Of a DNA stretch of 37,801 bases, positions 8,326-14,385 are shown in pieces. Location: the IMG/VR virus record IMGVR_UViG_3300048895_000147, positions 1 through 37,801 of that record, one strand, 5' to 3'. Made by a program: the position numbers and the translations under genes. The notes under the pieces were generated by a model. That model had not been told where the DNA came from and did no database searches. It saw only the letters and a program-made list of their open reading frames with translations. Position 1 is the stretch's first letter, and every line of letters starts with the position of its first letter. Source of the stretch: a virus (taxonomy: Duplodnaviria > Caudoviricetes).

Positions 8326-10341
8326 TTACGCAACATTTTGATTTGGTGCAACAGTTTCTTTGTCTGGATTTGCAGCAGGACTTATTTCGTTCAATATTTG
8401 AACCTGTTGCATGATATGCTCTAGATCCATTCCTTTTAGCTCTTTTAATGCTTTAACTACGTTTAATAGGCTTGCAGTGTCTTCTTGATGGGATTTACGT
8501 ATTTTATCGCTAGCGACTGCGTTATCCATCGTGATTTTAGCCACTCTTTCTTTTGCCAATCCTTCTTGAGAATGTGCGTACGCAACTTTAGTCATATTGT
8601 CCACTTGCATTTGCTGCATCTGCATCTGAGCCATTTTCTCTTGCTGTTCTTGCATTCCTTTCTGCTTAGCCTGTATTTTCTCAATGATACGGTCTTTATT
8701 TTGAATGGTCATAGCCTCTATGATTTCATCTATGGGCATTAGATCCGGTGCGATCTGTTGTAAGTGTAGTAGTTGAGCTAATTCGAGTTGTTGCTGTGAT
8801 TCTGTTAATGGGGCTTGAACGACTTTACAACCATATTTAAAGAAGATCTTGCTGTCAAATTCTGGTGAGGGCTCTTCGCCAATTACTTGTTTGACCTTCC
8901 CATAAGTCCAATTCTTTTGCATGAATTTGATCTCAAGGTCACCGCATAAACGTTGCGCTTCATCCGCTTGGTCAAATAACCGCGTTAGATTGCGTGAGGT
9001 CGCAGCCTGGCGCATCATCGATATAATACCAGCCTTATCGTCTACATCCATCCCCATGGAGGCAGGATCAACTCCGGAGACACGGTAGATGATGTCTTTG
9101 AGCATTTCTTCCATTTGAAGCATGACGGGCGACGGAGGCACGATCGGCATAGGTTGGACGTCATCCATACTCATTTCTGGATCAATGAATAGAGCCCGCC
9201 CATGACCTTGATTAAATGCATCGTCAGGTGTAACTAGAGCACCTTTCTTAACTTTGATTCCCTGTTGTTGTGCGTCCAATATTTCTAAATTTGAGACCTT
9301 TAATCTGTTAAATAAGTATTGTGGATCGCGAAGGTCCCTGCATATACCTCTGAACTTATATGCGTAGTAAGGTGTATCCGCTGTAAAGTATGCTAGAAGT
9401 GGAACTACAGGGTAACAATCTAAACCGTAAGGGTTGGGTTCATCTACAATCACGCGGTCATTTAGGATGATGGATCGTCTAACTGTGGGGATTTGTTTAG
9501 TGATGACTGCGAGTTTCCCTTTGAATGCACTGACAATATCTTTTAATTGTTCTTCTGTTCCTGTAAACTCCTGAGTCTCTTCCGTTTTCTTATCCACCAA
9601 ATACTTGGCTTCACGATTAGTTAAATACCAGTATTCATCAAATGCAATCAGATTAGGAAATTGGATTTGATACACTTCAGGCATGTAAAAGAATTTGTCG
9701 TCTCTATATGTACCCTTGGGCAATCGCAATATATCATCTGCGAATTGTGAGTATAATAACGCCGCTTCTTCTCTATCAAAGAATGTACGCAGCCACCAGA
9801 ACCTTGCATCACTCATATCATGCTTACGGAAATATGGGTCCCAGAGAGCCGCCTTCATATCTACATAGCGCCATCTTGGGTCAGGAGATATGGGATCTTG
9901 CGTATTATCCCCATAAAGATACATAAATCCTAGGCCTTGAACTAATCCTCCAAGTTCAAATGCATCGCTAAAAGTCTGATAAAAACCCTGTTTATGATTG
10001 TGGTATAGGCATTTAGTGAGCTGGTCCGAGGTTTTCTGTGCCCCATTATGGATGGGAACACACGCAGTCGATTTACGCGTCATCCTCTGTTGTCCGGATA
10101 TAGCCTGGACAATAGGATTCATTATGTTAAAATTCCACACTTTTCGCTTATATGTGGCTACACCAGGGAATATCAAACCCCAAATGTCCTGATCACCCAT
10201 ACAAAAGCGTTGGTCGACATCGGCCTGATACCATTGTGTTTGCAGTATGTTTATGCAATCAGAGTAGTTTTTCTCCATCGATTGACGGAGAGAAGTATTT
10301 AACCCATCCTCGGGCCAAAAAATTGGGTCATTGTTACGCAA
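8326..10341 (-). CDS. Portal protein, P22-like
   Basis: 671 aa (TTG start, GAGGT RBS). FNIMNPIVQAISGQQR, GICRDLRDPQYLFN and a Gln-rich C-terminal barrel coiled-coil; follows the terminase. Confidence 0.9.
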   Translation of the reverse strand: MRNNDPIFWPEDGLNTSLRQSMEKNYSDCINILQTQWYQADVDQRFCMGDQDIWGLIFPGVATYKRKVWNFNIMNPIVQAISGQQRMTRKSTACVPIHNGAQKTSDQLTKCLYHNHKQGFYQTFSDAFELGGLVQGLGFMYLYGDNTQDPISPDPRWRYVDMKAALWDPYFRKHDMSDARFWWLRTFFDREEAALLYSQFADDILRLPKGTYRDDKFFYMPEVYQIQFPNLIAFDEYWYLTNREAKYLVDKKTEETQEFTGTEEQLKDIVSAFKGKLAVITKQIPTVRRSIILNDRVIVDEPNPYGLDCYPVVPLLAYFTADTPYYAYKFRGICRDLRDPQYLFNRLKVSNLEILDAQQQGIKVKKGALVTPDDAFNQGHGRALFIDPEMSMDDVQPMPIVPPSPVMLQMEEMLKDIIYRVSGVDPASMGMDVDDKAGIISMMRQAATSRNLTRLFDQADEAQRLCGDLEIKFMQKNWTYGKVKQVIGEEPSPEFDSKIFFKYGCKVVQAPLTESQQQLELAQLLHLQQIAPDLMPIDEIIEAMTIQNKDRIIEKIQAKQKGMQEQQEKMAQMQMQQMQVDNMTKVAYAHSQEGLAKERVAKITMDNAVASDKIRKSHQEDTASLLNVVKALKELKGMDLEHIMQQVQILNEISPAANPDKETVAPNQNVA

Positions 10342-10397: not shown

Positions 10398-10685
10398 TTA
10401 TTCTTTATCTGTCTTTAGGTTAGGCCTAGTCATTGCGACTATCCCTTTGCATTCATTTATCATTATCCGTAACGCGTTATAGACATTTTGAAGCTTTTCT
10501 TCTTTTTCTTTGATAATTTCTAAATTTTCTTGGTTTTCCCTGATTTTATCGATTAACTCATTAAATCTATTAACGTCTAAAAACCGCAAAATAGTGTTAA
10601 TGGATATTAACTCATCTTCTATGCGGTCTACGATTTGTTTTATTTCCGTGACTTCCTCGCAAAGATTTCTTTCTTCTTCGATCAT
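10398..10685 (-). CDS. Coiled-coil hypothetical protein
   Basis: 95 aa, ATGA-coupled to terL-C. Confidence 0.7.
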   Translation of the reverse strand: MIEEERNLCEEVTEIKQIVDRIEDELISINTILRFLDVNRFNELIDKIRENQENLEIIKEKEEKLQNVYNALRIMINECKGIVAMTRPNLKTDKE

Positions 10686-11512
10686 GAGAAATACCTATTA
10701 ATAGCTTTAAGATCGTTTTCAATGCTTCCACCCTGGGATGCTTCCATACCTTTTAACCCTACTCCTAGCATTCTAAATGCATCGCTTGCGTGGCTATGTT
10801 GATCATGTAACGGTTGATTGTGGTAACATCCTAATTTATCATCCCATAGTTTTCGATAGGCCTCTAGATGCATCAATCCTTTTCGACAATTCTTTTCATC
10901 GAAAACGCAACGACCAAGTATAGAGCGAACAATATTAATACCATCGAATATCCCCTTGCTTTCCCTAGGTAATACCACGAACTTTCCTTGTAAAACCGCT
11001 TTACATAGATCGACCCAGGTCGTCATATTCGCATCATGATTCAACCCATCGTGGGGGAAAATGTGACGCCCGAATTTATATTTCTGATCATTTAGCCAAT
11101 CGCAATAGAATGTAGCGCGTTCCCCATGATTCTCATAGAAGTTTATCAGCTTAACTTGTCCTCCCATACCTAGCTGAAAGCACCATATGCTCGTGTAATC
11201 ATGTACACCAATATCCCACGCAGTATGTACTAGGTTAGAATCATCATAAGGAACGTTACAAATGCAACCTTTTTCACGAAGTTTAGCGATTTGAGCTCCA
11301 TAGTATAATCCTTCATTTGCTGATTCAAACGCTTCATCTGCGTTCGACGGGTATTCTTGCTTCATAGAGTCGCCTAGCATGCGCTGTTTCATCTCGTACC
11401 AGCGCCGTTGCTCTTCGTCAATCTTGCGTTGTCGCTCTGATTCGATACGATTCAGATATGCGTTTGTCTCTTGGCTAACAACAATGTCCATTGTACTCAT
11501 TTCCTTTTTCAT
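10682..11512 (-). CDS. terL: Terminase large subunit, C-terminal part (lid + RNase H-like nuclease); likely start ATG at 11491 or 11500
   Basis: MKQEYPSNADEAF, AWDIGVHDYT, FPHDG and HDQHSHASDAFR nuclease motifs. Confidence 0.9.
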   Translation of the reverse strand: MKKEMSTMDIVVSQETNAYLNRIESERQRKIDEEQRRWYEMKQRMLGDSMKQEYPSNADEAFESANEGLYYGAQIAKLREKGCICNVPYDDSNLVHTAWDIGVHDYTSIWCFQLGMGGQVKLINFYENHGERATFYCDWLNDQKYKFGRHIFPHDGLNHDANMTTWVDLCKAVLQGKFVVLPRESKGIFDGINIVRSILGRCVFDEKNCRKGLMHLEAYRKLWDDKLGCYHNQPLHDQHSHASDAFRMLGVGLKGMEASQGGSIENDLKAINRYFS

Positions 11513-11735
11513 ACTTTTTTTTAAATCTTTCTATGTCATCATCCATAGCACTATTTAGAATGTTTTCCAATTCTTTAGGATCAGATAGTTTTATGGATTC
11601 CCATGTACCTAAACAAAAATCTATGTATTTTTCTTTATCAAAACCTTGTTTTTCCAATGTTAACGCCACTTTCATAGAGGCTATAATTAAAACTCTTACG
11701 TCCATTGGTAATTTATCTAAATTTAACTGATCCAT
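11475..11735 (-). CDS. Hypothetical 86-aa protein inserted between the two terL halves
   Basis: Own RBS (AAGGAAG), different frame from terL, no terminase-like sequence. Confidence 0.7.
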   Translation of the reverse strand: MDQLNLDKLPMDVRVLIIASMKVALTLEKQGFDKEKYIDFCLGTWESIKLSDPKELENILNSAMDDDIERFKKKYEKGNEYNGHCC

Positions 11736-11743
11736 ATCTTCCT

Positions 11744-12436
11744 TTATTTTAACCTATATTCAGGTTCATCCATCCAGCTGAGAAAGTGAAACTTGAAATC
11801 CATTTTGGTTAATTTCCTTCCGCTATCCCGCACCTTACGTGCTTCCGTGCATAATGAATAAAAGTAACCCTGTCTACCCTCTGCGGTGCTTTCTACAACA
11901 ACGACCTGATCCTCAGCTACCGTGTTTAAACTTCCTGTCATTATCTCTTTAGCTGCATCCGGTGACTGACAGCAGATTTTTCCATATTCGCTAACTAACA
12001 ACCTGTTGCACGTGCCAGAGCGAAAACCCGTGCTTACACGATAGTTAGAGCCATTCTCAAACATTAACTCGCCCGCACGATCATTCCTAGCTCTATTTAT
12101 TGCTCTAGTCCATGGTGGCATATTGTCATAAGCAAATTTAACCTTTGATCTAAATATGTTCTCCGCATCTTCTCGACGGTGCGCAATAATCCCAGCCGTC
12201 ATATTCTCTTGCCAAAAGCAATCGTCAAGGAAATCTATTGCCCAAAATGTTGTGCATCCTAATTGCCTAGCCTTTAGTATGATGGTTTTATTCCAACGGT
12301 CATTGTGAAGCTGGTTTTGGACAAAATTTAGAGAGAACGGAACTTTATTTCCTGATTTATCAATGACATAATATAGGTTTTCTAGTCGAGATTTCTTGTC
12401 TAGTAGGGTTTCAATATCCGGTGGCGTTTCCCACAT
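11744..12436 (-). CDS. terL: Terminase large subunit, N-terminal ATPase part
   Basis: LNFVQ adenine-binding motif, ILKARQLGCTT Walker A, LLVSEYG Walker B, ESTAEG coupling motif. Confidence 0.92.
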   Translation of the reverse strand: MWETPPDIETLLDKKSRLENLYYVIDKSGNKVPFSLNFVQNQLHNDRWNKTIILKARQLGCTTFWAIDFLDDCFWQENMTAGIIAHRREDAENIFRSKVKFAYDNMPPWTRAINRARNDRAGELMFENGSNYRVSTGFRSGTCNRLLVSEYGKICCQSPDAAKEIMTGSLNTVAEDQVVVVESTAEGRQGYFYSLCTEARKVRDSGRKLTKMDFKFHFLSWMDEPEYRLK

Positions 12437-12885
12437 TAGATTTCATCTTTTTCTTTCTTTTTTATGAGATTGGAAATTAATTCAGAAGCCGCCTTTGAGG
12501 ATATGGAAGATTCTTCTTTATCAGTATCCTTATAGCCTTCGTGACTACGTGCTAACATAAATCTAGCATGTGCACCATCTGCTTTTTTCCAGAAGGGGTA
12601 TTTATTTAATCGACTTTCTTGTATGGATTTTGCTTGGGAATAGTATTCAGCAAACACAGGGTATCTTTCTTTCAATTTATCAACATGGCGCTTACCAATT
12701 CCTCTGTATATAAAAAAATCCTGAAACCAAACCTCCATCGGATTTTCTATAAACCACATCACCATTTCTTTACCAAGTTTGATCAGTTCCTCTTGAGTAT
12801 AAGCATCTTCGGGTTTTCCTAAATAACCAAGTAACCCCCCCTTTTCACATCCTGCATAGGGTAAATGCCCTTTTGGAGCTGCCAT
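12436..12885 (-). CDS. terS: Terminase small subunit
   Basis: MAAPKGH start, TAATG coupling to terL, size and helical character. Confidence 0.75.
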   Translation of the reverse strand: MAAPKGHLPYAGCEKGGLLGYLGKPEDAYTQEELIKLGKEMVMWFIENPMEVWFQDFFIYRGIGKRHVDKLKERYPVFAEYYSQAKSIQESRLNKYPFWKKADGAHARFMLARSHEGYKDTDKEESSISSKAASELISNLIKKKEKDEI

Positions 12886-13549: not shown

Positions 13550-13732
13550 TTAATCCTTTATGGTTTTCCTTATGATCACAAGATTTTCTATGGAATAGTC
13601 GGTTCGATCACCGCTAATATTATGTACGAACTCTCCTTTTTCTAGGGGACGTCCCAAATGTTCTTCCATAACGTGCCTATGAATGCGTTGTTTTATACCG
13701 TTAATGGTTTTATGAGGATATCGTTTTTTCAC
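13550..13732 (-). CDS. Short, degenerate HNH endonuclease-like protein
   Basis: IHRHVMEEHLGRPL...VHNISGDRTDYSIENL resembles HNH_3, with the catalytic His and Asn altered. Confidence 0.7.
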   Translation of the reverse strand: MKKRYPHKTINGIKQRIHRHVMEEHLGRPLEKGEFVHNISGDRTDYSIENLVIIRKTIKD

Positions 13733-14385
13733 AATATAACCCGAATAGGTTCGTTCACATGCTCATAGTTCTCGTTAACAATGCTACAATTGACTGAGAG
13801 CATCATTTTATCGTTGTGTGTCGGGAAAACCTCTTTCTGTCCATATGATTCATGGATGTGACCGAAAACATGTAATCTAGGCCGGCCAACGTATTTTAAC
13901 CATCCGTACAGGCCTTTGCTCCCCACATGACGGTCATCTCTAGTTTCATCCAGTATGCTATATGCTGGCCCGTGAGTAATCAAAATGTCTGTATCACTAG
14001 GGATTTTATCATATGCATCCATGAGTTTATTTTCATTACCTGTGAACGCACTACATTTTGGATTGATTCCAGGAAACCACAAAGACCATGGTGATCCCCA
14101 TATTTTAAGTCCTTCGAATTCTGTTCCTGAGTCGCATAGATATGTGCACTCCATTGGGCCAATTTCTGTGGTCACACCTGATGAAACATTTTTTTCCATG
14201 TAGCCGTCATGATTTCCAGCTATAACAATTTTCATTCTATAGTGTTGTTTTTTTAGCCATGATGAAAATTCTACATGTTGATCATGCGTATCCCTACCGG
14301 TCAAATCACCTGCCACAATCAAAAGATCTCCTCTATCTAGTTTAGGGTAGTAGCCATGTAGGTCGCTGATACAGGTAATTTCCAC
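13729..14385 (-). CDS. Calcineurin-like metallophosphoesterase
   Basis: SDLHG, AGDLT, AGNHD, THGP and FGHIHE motifs. Confidence 0.93.
   Translation of the reverse strand: MEITCISDLHGYYPKLDRGDLLIVAGDLTGRDTHDQHVEFSSWLKKQHYRMKIVIAGNHDGYMEKNVSSGVTTEIGPMECTYLCDSGTEFEGLKIWGSPWSLWFPGINPKCSAFTGNENKLMDAYDKIPSDTDILITHGPAYSILDETRDDRHVGSKGLYGWLKYVGRPRLHVFGHIHESYGQKEVFPTHNDKMMLSVNCSIVNENYEHVNEPIRVIL

Follow-up and report, generated by a model that had tools for sequence, protein, structure and literature searches.

A phage large terminase gene split into two open reading frames, probably by a free-standing homing-endonuclease cassette

Gene splitting of the sort considered here is already known from other phage genes, and it forms the background to the large terminase (TerL) gene of a tailed soil phage, record IMGVR_UViG_3300048895_000147, the whole 37,801-nucleotide (nt) stretch of which is called the window below. 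In the window, TerL is spread over two open reading frames (ORFs), an N-half and a C-half, separated by an insert with an unrelated ORF of 86 amino acids (aa), ORF86. The nrdA/mobE system of Aeromonas phage Aeh1 was reportedly the subject of a PNAS paper by Friedrich and colleagues in 2007. Aeh1 carries nrdA-a, mobE and nrdA-b as "genes in pieces": the gene of an essential enzyme is cut in two by a free-standing HNH gene, no splicing of RNA or protein is involved, the two polypeptides form the active enzyme, and the tails derived from the insertion are essential for activity (Crona et al., 2010, PMC3045599). The MobA element of the T4-like topoisomerase II large gene (gp39/gp60) has repeatedly and independently entered the same site; a C-terminal extension of the upstream half and an N-terminal extension of the downstream half lie on either side of its HNH ORF, out of frame with it and with short overlaps of 1-20 and 8-32 nt, and the endonuclease was later pseudogenised, lost or replaced while the split persisted (Manning & Atkins, bioRxiv 10.1101/2022.08.31.505936). 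Another example is that of the "fractured genes", which are broken in two with a homing endonuclease gene between the pieces and in which the halves carry split inteins (Dassa et al., 2009, PMC2677866). HNH ORFs are also on record as interruptions of TerL genes: in Pectobacterium phage CB7 the interruption, a group I intron, is spliced from the mRNA as seen by reverse transcription PCR (PMC7344957), and in Campylobacter phage IBB_35 the interruptions were described as introns and inteins (PMC3322345). In the open-access papers searched, no description of a widespread, non-spliced two-chain TerL was found.

The locus in the window is likely to be a member of this group of cases, namely a large terminase encoded as two ORFs, a two-chain TerL left behind by a free-standing homing-endonuclease cassette, with ORF86 now in the slot. 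It resembles Aeh1 in that an essential enzyme gene appears to have been cut in two by a free-standing HNH gene without RNA or protein splicing, and, as with the two NrdA polypeptides, the two halves are predicted from their sequences to assemble non-covalently into one working terminase. It differs in its target, which is TerL cut inside the ATPase domain, in the cargo of the window, which is an unrelated 86-aa ORF and no endonuclease, and in the length of the tails, which are essential in Aeh1 and here amount to 1 and 2 residues. Likenesses to MobA are the repeated independent insertion at one site, the out-of-frame HNH ORF with short overlaps at its ends, and the later loss or replacement of the endonuclease while the split persists; in the present locus a translational bypass cassette is lacking, the extensions are far shorter, the gene that was cut is another one, and the cargo in the slot of the window is not an endonuclease. 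From the fractured genes it differs in that no intein fragments flank the break and the halves stop and resume no more than 1-2 residues from the intact sequence. What is new for terminases is a widespread and stable cut that separates the RecA core from the lid within the ATPase domain.

In the window, a complete phage genome with direct terminal repeats, the N-half (12436..11744, minus strand) encodes the RecA-like ATPase core in 230 aa and ends with ...SWMDEPEYRLK, followed by TAA at 11746-11744. The C-half (11491..10682, minus strand) encodes the lid and the RNase-H-like nuclease in 269 aa, counted from a conserved ATG at 11491 (MDIVVSQETNAYL); its frame is open from an ATG at 11512, and neither this codon nor the in-frame ATG at 11500 is conserved among relatives. 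The insert, from the N-half stop to the conserved C-half ATG (11492..11743, minus strand), consists of 252 nt of AT-rich DNA and is compositionally foreign, with a GC content of 0.286 against 0.41-0.42 in the halves, which ranks it in the bottom 1% of all genomic windows of 252 nt. ORF86 (11735..11475, minus strand) lies in a frame other than that of the halves, is preceded by a Shine-Dalgarno-like AGGAAG at 11743-11738, 2 nt upstream of its ATG, and overlaps the start of the C-half out of frame by 17 nt. The C-half ATG is itself preceded by AAGGAA (11506-11501) and GAG (11498-11496), and a purine-rich, Shine-Dalgarno-like motif lies 2-11 nt 5' of every C-half start inspected in the window and its relatives. 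No promoter- or terminator-like site was found on the minus strand within the insert. An earlier note on this DNA had described a TerL split by an inserted 86-aa ORF that lies in another frame and has its own ribosome-binding site, and had favoured a natural two-chain enzyme; all of its coordinates hold, and the evidence presented below supports its choice.

Both halves are recognizable as TerL by profile and by homology. The N-half matches phrog_2, terminase large subunit (E 1.2e-15), and phrog_26724 (E 8e-55), the C-half matches phrog_2472 (E 1.7e-54), and in tblastn searches against annotated TerLs the halves showed 44-51% and 37-42% identity, respectively; in Pfam and NCBIfam neither half was matched. 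Two profiles, phrog_2472 and phrog_38407, span the junction, so that the end of the N-half and the start of the C-half fall on adjacent profile positions. In Pseudomonas phage PS-1, residue 229 of the N-half and residue 5 of the C-half abut within a single TerL coding sequence of 1485 nt. The halves keep all 17 of the 17 columns that are invariant across 82 intact TerLs, among them K55, R57, E150, E182 and T184 in the N-half and P48, E53, D93, G95, Q106, P146 and D148 in the C-half; some of these residues we take to be those of the Walker A, Walker B and C-motifs. Pairwise ratios of nonsynonymous to synonymous substitution (dN/dS), calculated by the Nei-Gojobori method with dS at or above 1.3 or saturated, lay, among split genomes where dS could be estimated, between 0.026 and 0.048 in the N-half and between 0.015 and 0.053 in the C-half; they reached 0.061 in comparisons with intact relatives, and the intact pair L004-L006 was at a like level (0.023 and 0.024). 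Both halves are under strong purifying selection, which indirectly favours their separate translation and assembly into an active enzyme. The assignment of an ATPase half and a lid/nuclease half, the adjacency of the two segments in intact terminases (PS-1, L004 and L006 read straight through) and the intactness of the catalytic motifs, all of which had been proposed from the letters, are borne out by profiles, tblastn, the invariant columns and the modelled structure of an intact relative.

The missing family names have a practical side: halves of ~230 and ~270 aa carry no Pfam or NCBIfam name and are called hypothetical where they are named at all, so TerL-based taxonomy and phage-completeness tools may miss or mis-size TerL in this group of soil phages. 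The extents of two of the PHROG profiles are a separate observation. The 192 positions of phrog_26724 match residues 9-193 of the N-half, and the first ~54 of the 324 positions of phrog_2472 match its residues 184-228, which hints that in some phages of GenBank a related TerL has been annotated as two pieces, with the division ~40 residues upstream of the split site. Such a division could reflect another split, an intron or faulty annotation.

Where the cut falls was assessed on the intact TerL of L004, which is 84-85% identical to the halves of the window and for which an AlphaFold2 (AF2) model with a predicted local distance difference test score (pLDDT) of 92.6 was obtained; a sequence search of the PDB with this protein gave 0 matches. 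The model has the two-domain TerL fold, with an ASCE ATPase plus lid and an RNase-H-like nuclease. YRL, the motif at the break, comprises residues 227-229 within a coil (224-237) that links the last strand of the core (215-219) to a block of helices (238-305), and the nuclease begins near residue 319. In comparisons with crystal structures of isolated domains, the ATPase domain of T4 gp17 (2o0h) aligns to residues 1-287 of the model (Z 21.4, root-mean-square deviation 2.8 A) and that of P74-26 (4zni) to residues 12-289 (Z 20.4), the nuclease domains of SPP1, P22 and G20c align to residues 289-480, and DEAD-box RecA domains align to ~13-222 only. Because the ATPase-domain structures reach residue 289 and the RecA domains only ~222, the cut in the model lies inside the ATPase domain, between RecA-like core and lid, and not at the flexible ATPase-nuclease linker, which is ~60 residues downstream. 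In work on the P74-26 TerL, the lid is reportedly thought to move with the ATP cycle. A widespread and stable TerL with core and lid as separate chains would show that the covalent link between them is dispensable, and it would offer a ready-made two-piece system for mechanistic experiments.

Relatives of the window form a natural series at a single codon. Scans of viral and metagenome contigs with the N-half yielded 23 loci, of which 21 could be classified (L021 and L025 end before the split site and were left out); with PS-1 and the window this makes 23 rows. The gene is intact in 15 of the 23 rows and split at the same codon in the other eight, which represent six distinct arrangements, L011 being like L001 and L012 like L003. 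The intact close relatives L004 and L006 read ...YRL[D/N]SPEI[IV]VSKETN across the break point, and in all split forms the break comes after YR[LI]; aligning the halves to intact homologues, as the earlier note had proposed, thereby fixed the breakpoint to one codon. In the clade of the window, all N-halves finish with AG[GA]TTAAAA-T[AG]A and all C-halves start with ATGGACAT[TA]GT, and the insert, stop codon excluded, measures 0 nt in L002, 252 in the window, 450 in L001 and L011 and 1347 in L003 and L012. The junction of L002 (TTAAAATAATGGAC) is a TAATG stop/start overlap that leaves the halves in different frames. The passenger of L001 matches the HNH endonuclease profile phrog_374 (E 4e-23) over zinc-ribbon repeats and has no Pfam HNH domain. 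That of L003 (1105-1992 of its contig, also in L012) is a protein of 296 aa with a U-box/RING-like domain (PF04564, E 3.8e-7, 30.6 bits, above the cut-off), a domain that is unusual in phages. The same protein has a glycine-zipper-like stretch, and an ORF of 118 aa that belongs to no family comes after it. The check proposed in the earlier note, whether relatives are split at the same site with different passengers, came out positive, the slot holding HNH ORFs, a zinc-ribbon ORF, a U-box ORF or nothing.

A second survey, a profile scan of viral contigs, gave 80 loci, 76 of them intact, and added the split pair L030/L031. A maximum-likelihood tree of TerL with 22 rows calls for three or more changes in the split state: the clade of the window is monophyletic (89/81) and sister to the intact L004/L006, L017 is on a separate branch, and L013 is nested among the intact L005 and L014 (99/98). 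The same break therefore occurs in at least three TerL lineages, and it is found in dozens of database clusters. Two further loci of these surveys concern the split site itself. L035 (= locus L110) reads through it, and L058, a more distant relative, has an in-frame TGA ~10 codons upstream of it (2290-2330, ..FFP*WKHPEYML..) in a TerL frame that is otherwise continuous, which could be a sequencing error, a pseudogene or recoding.

The evidence for an endonuclease origin comes mainly from two lineages outside the clade of the window. In L017, whose N-half is 67% identical to that of the window, the N-half ends YRLE-TGA and a 222-aa ORF with an HNH_3 domain (E 2.1e-11) stands between the halves; its ATG overlaps the N-half stop as ATGA (4 nt), and the C-half start (MDIPSTNDSLIVSKETN) lies 23 nt inside its 3' end. 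L031 carries an HNH_3 ORF of 208 aa (E 8e-9), 47% identical to the L017 enzyme, and has its C-half ATG 20 nt inside this ORF. The cassette thus supplies the upstream stop and the downstream start in L017, and the C-half start in L031, while overlapping the HNH ORF out of frame, and the overlaps of 4 nt upstream and 23 or 20 nt downstream may be set beside those given above for MobA. Scars of both enzymes are present. In L013, only a 35-codon remnant remains, whose end (...IKWAKEFLEEYGYSVKKK; ...WAKEFLEEYGYSVKKK) is the C-terminus of the L017 enzyme (...INWAKEFLEEYGYTINK), and the halves are still split; L030 retains a scar of an L031-type enzyme with the last codons ...KEHGYDVSRA. One endonuclease type is therefore found in different TerL clades, as a scar in L013 and as a full ORF in L017, and a close relative of the L017 endonuclease was not found in viral contigs. 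The last 120 nt before the break in L013 are 68-75% identical to L017 and 38-67% identical to its tree neighbours L014 and L005 (ungapped sliding identity), a hint of co-conversion that comes from the N side of L013 against L017, the C-side comparisons of L030 and L031 being spoiled by indels and left unused. This similarity and the spread of one endonuclease type over different clades are indirect signs that the enzyme would cut the intact allele.

The split is widespread in databases. In a collection of 5.8 billion proteins, 157 proteins of 126-403 aa match the N-half at E <=1e-20. The 120 that were listed comprise 69 whose ends fall 0-22 aa after YR[LI] and show ~40 different tails, 28 that continue beyond the site, and 23 that stop before it, mostly on short contigs. 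Similarly, more than half of the 73 new C-half-sized matches analysed (among 79 listed) start at the site (39), with short and diverse leaders such as MD, MDIxSxxND, MSFPEHN and MTFPEPN, while 21 read through it and 13 start later; P0124 and P0125 are database C-half homologues that, like the C-half of the window, begin with MD. More distant relatives (45-62% identity) on prokaryote genome contigs are intact in 73 of 80 loci, and a clean split at the site was seen in 0 of these 80, six loci flagged as split showing overlapping or distant breaks that were not inspected singly. Within these surveys, the at-site split is thus a trait of the window's own subfamily of ~35-40-kb environmental phages.

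Taken in order, the proposed steps would be the following. A free-standing HNH homing-endonuclease cassette likely created the break, with a 5' end that gave the N-half its stop and a 3' coding end that gave the C-half its ribosome site and ATG, as the arrangements of L017 and L031 illustrate. The endonuclease would later have been lost, leaving the scars of L013 and L030 and the empty TAATG junction of L002, and the slot would have been refilled by ORF86 in the window, by the HNH-related zinc-ribbon ORF in L001 and by the U-box ORF in L003. At present, the three ORFs of the window would be co-transcribed with the upstream ORF resembling a small terminase (TerS) and the downstream portal operon, each being translated from its own Shine-Dalgarno sequence and ATG. 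A free-standing endonuclease between the halves is absent from the window, present in L017 and L031 and partly represented in L001 (phrog_374), so that the window is read as a descendant state and not as a current carrier. The relatives preserve all stages, that is, the intact gene, the gene with the endonuclease present, the scar, the empty junction and the refilled slot, and this makes the locus a clean and well-populated natural case of an essential phage gene that a homing-endonuclease cassette would have broken and that probably still works as separate pieces.

Several points weigh against this account. The synthesis and mutual binding of the two polypeptides are deduced from sequence, and a look for RNA runs that contain the locus found none. 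The extra residues at the break are only one (K) and two (MD), so that assembly would rely on the native core-lid interface alone. For the C-half, the Shine-Dalgarno sequence stands far from the ATG, with a spacing of 10 nt if AAGGAA is counted and of 4 nt if GAG is. The clade of the window has no intact endonuclease and is linked to one through the HNH-related ORF of L001 and the other two lineages, and a comparison of ORF86 with HNH endonucleases by hhalign returned a probability of 0.2%.

The alternative that draws most on these points is a split by point changes, in which a stop and an adjacent start arose in a tolerant loop and the slot later captured endonucleases and cargo. It fits the minimal TAATG junction of L002, which holds no foreign DNA, and the lack of an intact endonuclease in the clade of the window, and sites between phage genes often gather small genes, the gap between TerL and portal being variable too. 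Against it stand the at least three independent breaks of the same codon and the intact HNH ORFs that provide the stop overlap and the start in two lineages whose sisters carry deletion scars. Many of the database C-half leaders (MDIxSxxND, MSFPEHN, MTFPEPN) moreover match the 3' ends of the L017 and L031 endonucleases, and the closer likeness of the 120 nt before the break in L013 to L017 than to its tree neighbours is suggestive in the same direction. An origin by point changes is accordingly considered unlikely, and the cassette is preferred as the source of the break.

As regards the present content of the slot, ORF86 is most likely a passenger gene, a cargo that fills the slot, and not part of the enzyme. 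It is acidic (isoelectric point 4.9) and predicted to be helical. Three homologues, with 95, 80 and 73% identity, are all 86 aa long and all end in ...YNGHCC, the part that overlaps the start of the C-half. No match was found in Pfam, PHROG (best E 0.016) or NCBIfam, no paralogue in the window or any fetched locus, and no locus in viral contigs; in the Atlas, ORF86 has no feature match and no neighbour, and the Atlas's own model has a pLDDT of 0.57. An AF2 model from the four sequences has three helices and a pLDDT of 57.6, too weak for a fold search. A resemblance by eye of its C-terminus (..EYNGH) to that of the endonucleases (..EYGY) received no support from hhalign. The opposite idea, that the two-chain terminase is a selected state and not a neutral scar and that ORF86 acts on the packaging motor instead of being a passenger, is quite improbable. 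If it were true, the split could blunt recognition by host immune sensors of the Avs type that bind the intact TerL fold, and the levels of the two chains could be set independently.

It is still less probable that the halves are rejoined, whether the ribosome skips from one TTA AAA to the other in a bypass, the RNA is spliced or the insert is excised from the DNA in a programmed way; these are the other two options of the earlier note. In the window the halves do share a frame, the starts at 12436 and 11491 being 945 nt (3x315) apart with 13 in-frame stops between them, TTA AAA (11752-11747) does recur in frame 228 nt downstream (11524-11519), and the halves are in frame in four of the six different arrangements of the split that were found first. 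Four of six, however, has a p of about 0.10 by chance, and the shared frame is not conserved, the halves being out of frame in L002, L013 and L030, and L002 has nothing to skip. The recurrence of TTAAAA is at chance level (65 occurrences in the window vs 77 +/- 8 expected), and the RNA of the insert folds no better than shuffled sequences (z = -0.01). ORF86 is kept as an 86-aa protein in four genomes, so that the insert is coding and not a spacer. No deletion joint was present in the contigs of four runs, contigs showing presence and not absence. A bypass of the T4 gene 60 type was also rejected as a model, with a gap of 228 nt vs ~50 nt there, a codon match at chance level and no RNA structure.

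Splicing in particular finds no basis in the searches made. For L001-L003, L013, L017, L030 and L031, Rfam gave no group I or group II intron at E <=1, and for the window only two chance matches of snoRNA type (E 1.3 and 8.8); neither half has a Hint or intein match in Pfam, with a single extra residue after YRL and two before IVVSQETN. The junction of L002, at 2 nt, leaves no room for a ribozyme. The locus thus resembles CB7 and IBB_35 in having a TerL gene interrupted, in relatives, by an HNH endonuclease ORF, and it differs from CB7, which splices, in that no ribozyme model matches, that the HNH ORF of L017 fills the whole insert and overlaps both halves, and that L002 has its 2-nt junction. 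The absence of group I intron and intein motifs noticed in the earlier note therefore stands, as do its two-chain option and its domains; the features it adduced for bypass and for splicing or excision do not carry those options, and the endonuclease origin was beyond its view.

Finally, that the locus is a decaying pseudogene or an assembly artefact, for which nothing speaks beyond the interruption itself, is scarcely credible, given dN/dS of 0.015-0.06 in both halves with saturated synonymous sites, invariant residues that are all kept, a single TerL N-half match in the whole, complete genome, which makes this its sole TerL, a 37.7-kb contig at a depth of ~40 from run X1 (possibly the source sample) that covers the locus and differs from it at 0 positions, a contig of 175 nt from the independent run X4 that falls within the insert and is 100% identical to it, and the same architecture in many independent contigs, so that neither decay nor misassembly, named beforehand as possible refutations, was found.

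The surroundings of the split gene fit one tightly coupled operon, with short overlaps between neighbouring ORFs on both sides. Upstream, an ORF of 149 aa (12436..12885, minus strand) adjoins the N-half and overlaps its start with its stop (TAATG). By position it is a candidate small terminase, the annotated TerS of phage PS-1 occupying the equivalent place, and it has no match in Pfam, PHROG or NCBIfam. Downstream, the C-half ends in an ATGA overlap with the next ORF, an AT-rich one (GC ~0.28) of 95 aa (10398-10685, minus strand) with a coiled-coil-like sequence, which lies between the C-half and a P22-like portal gene (8326-10341, PF16510, E 5e-49). The content of this place varies among relatives, with ORFs of 149 aa in L001, 107 aa in L002 and 116 aa in L003, and no ORF of at least 50 aa in L004; it is a second variable cargo slot. 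A further HNH gene, the second such gene of the genome, is found at 13553-13732 (minus strand), an ORF of 60 aa that matches Pfam HNH_3 (E 3.1e-9) and resembles a miniature HNH endonuclease; directly upstream of it is a metallophosphatase gene (13732-14385, PF00149, E 3.6e-13).

Other interruptions were noted among the database TerLs. P0167 (443 aa) is a C-half that starts at the split site (MVMISKNND|IVVSKETN) and has in addition a mini-intein near residues 245-408, with Intein_splicing (E 3e-8), PT-HINT and Hint_2 domains, so that one TerL appears to be both cassette-split and intein-invaded. Eleven TerL representatives (P0206, P0209, P0214, P0234, P0251, P0255, P0302, P0314, P0331, P0334 and P0340) are 780-1138 aa long and match the intact query in two or three stretches, with interruptions near query positions ~128-149 and ~281-293 that are likely to be inteins or other in-frame insertions at other positions.

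Among the distant relatives on prokaryote genome contigs, the nearest (59-62%) are on ~40-kb contigs binned into unrelated metagenome-assembled genomes (MAGs). Fourteen others with ~47-55% identity (L112, L115, L119-L121, L124, L126-L129, L134, L137, L146 and L155) sit in MAGs labelled Chlamydiae, Parachlamydiales or Chlamydiales, and some of their contigs are 2-3.3 Mb long, which suggests prophages; the labels give a faint indication of which hosts the wider family uses.

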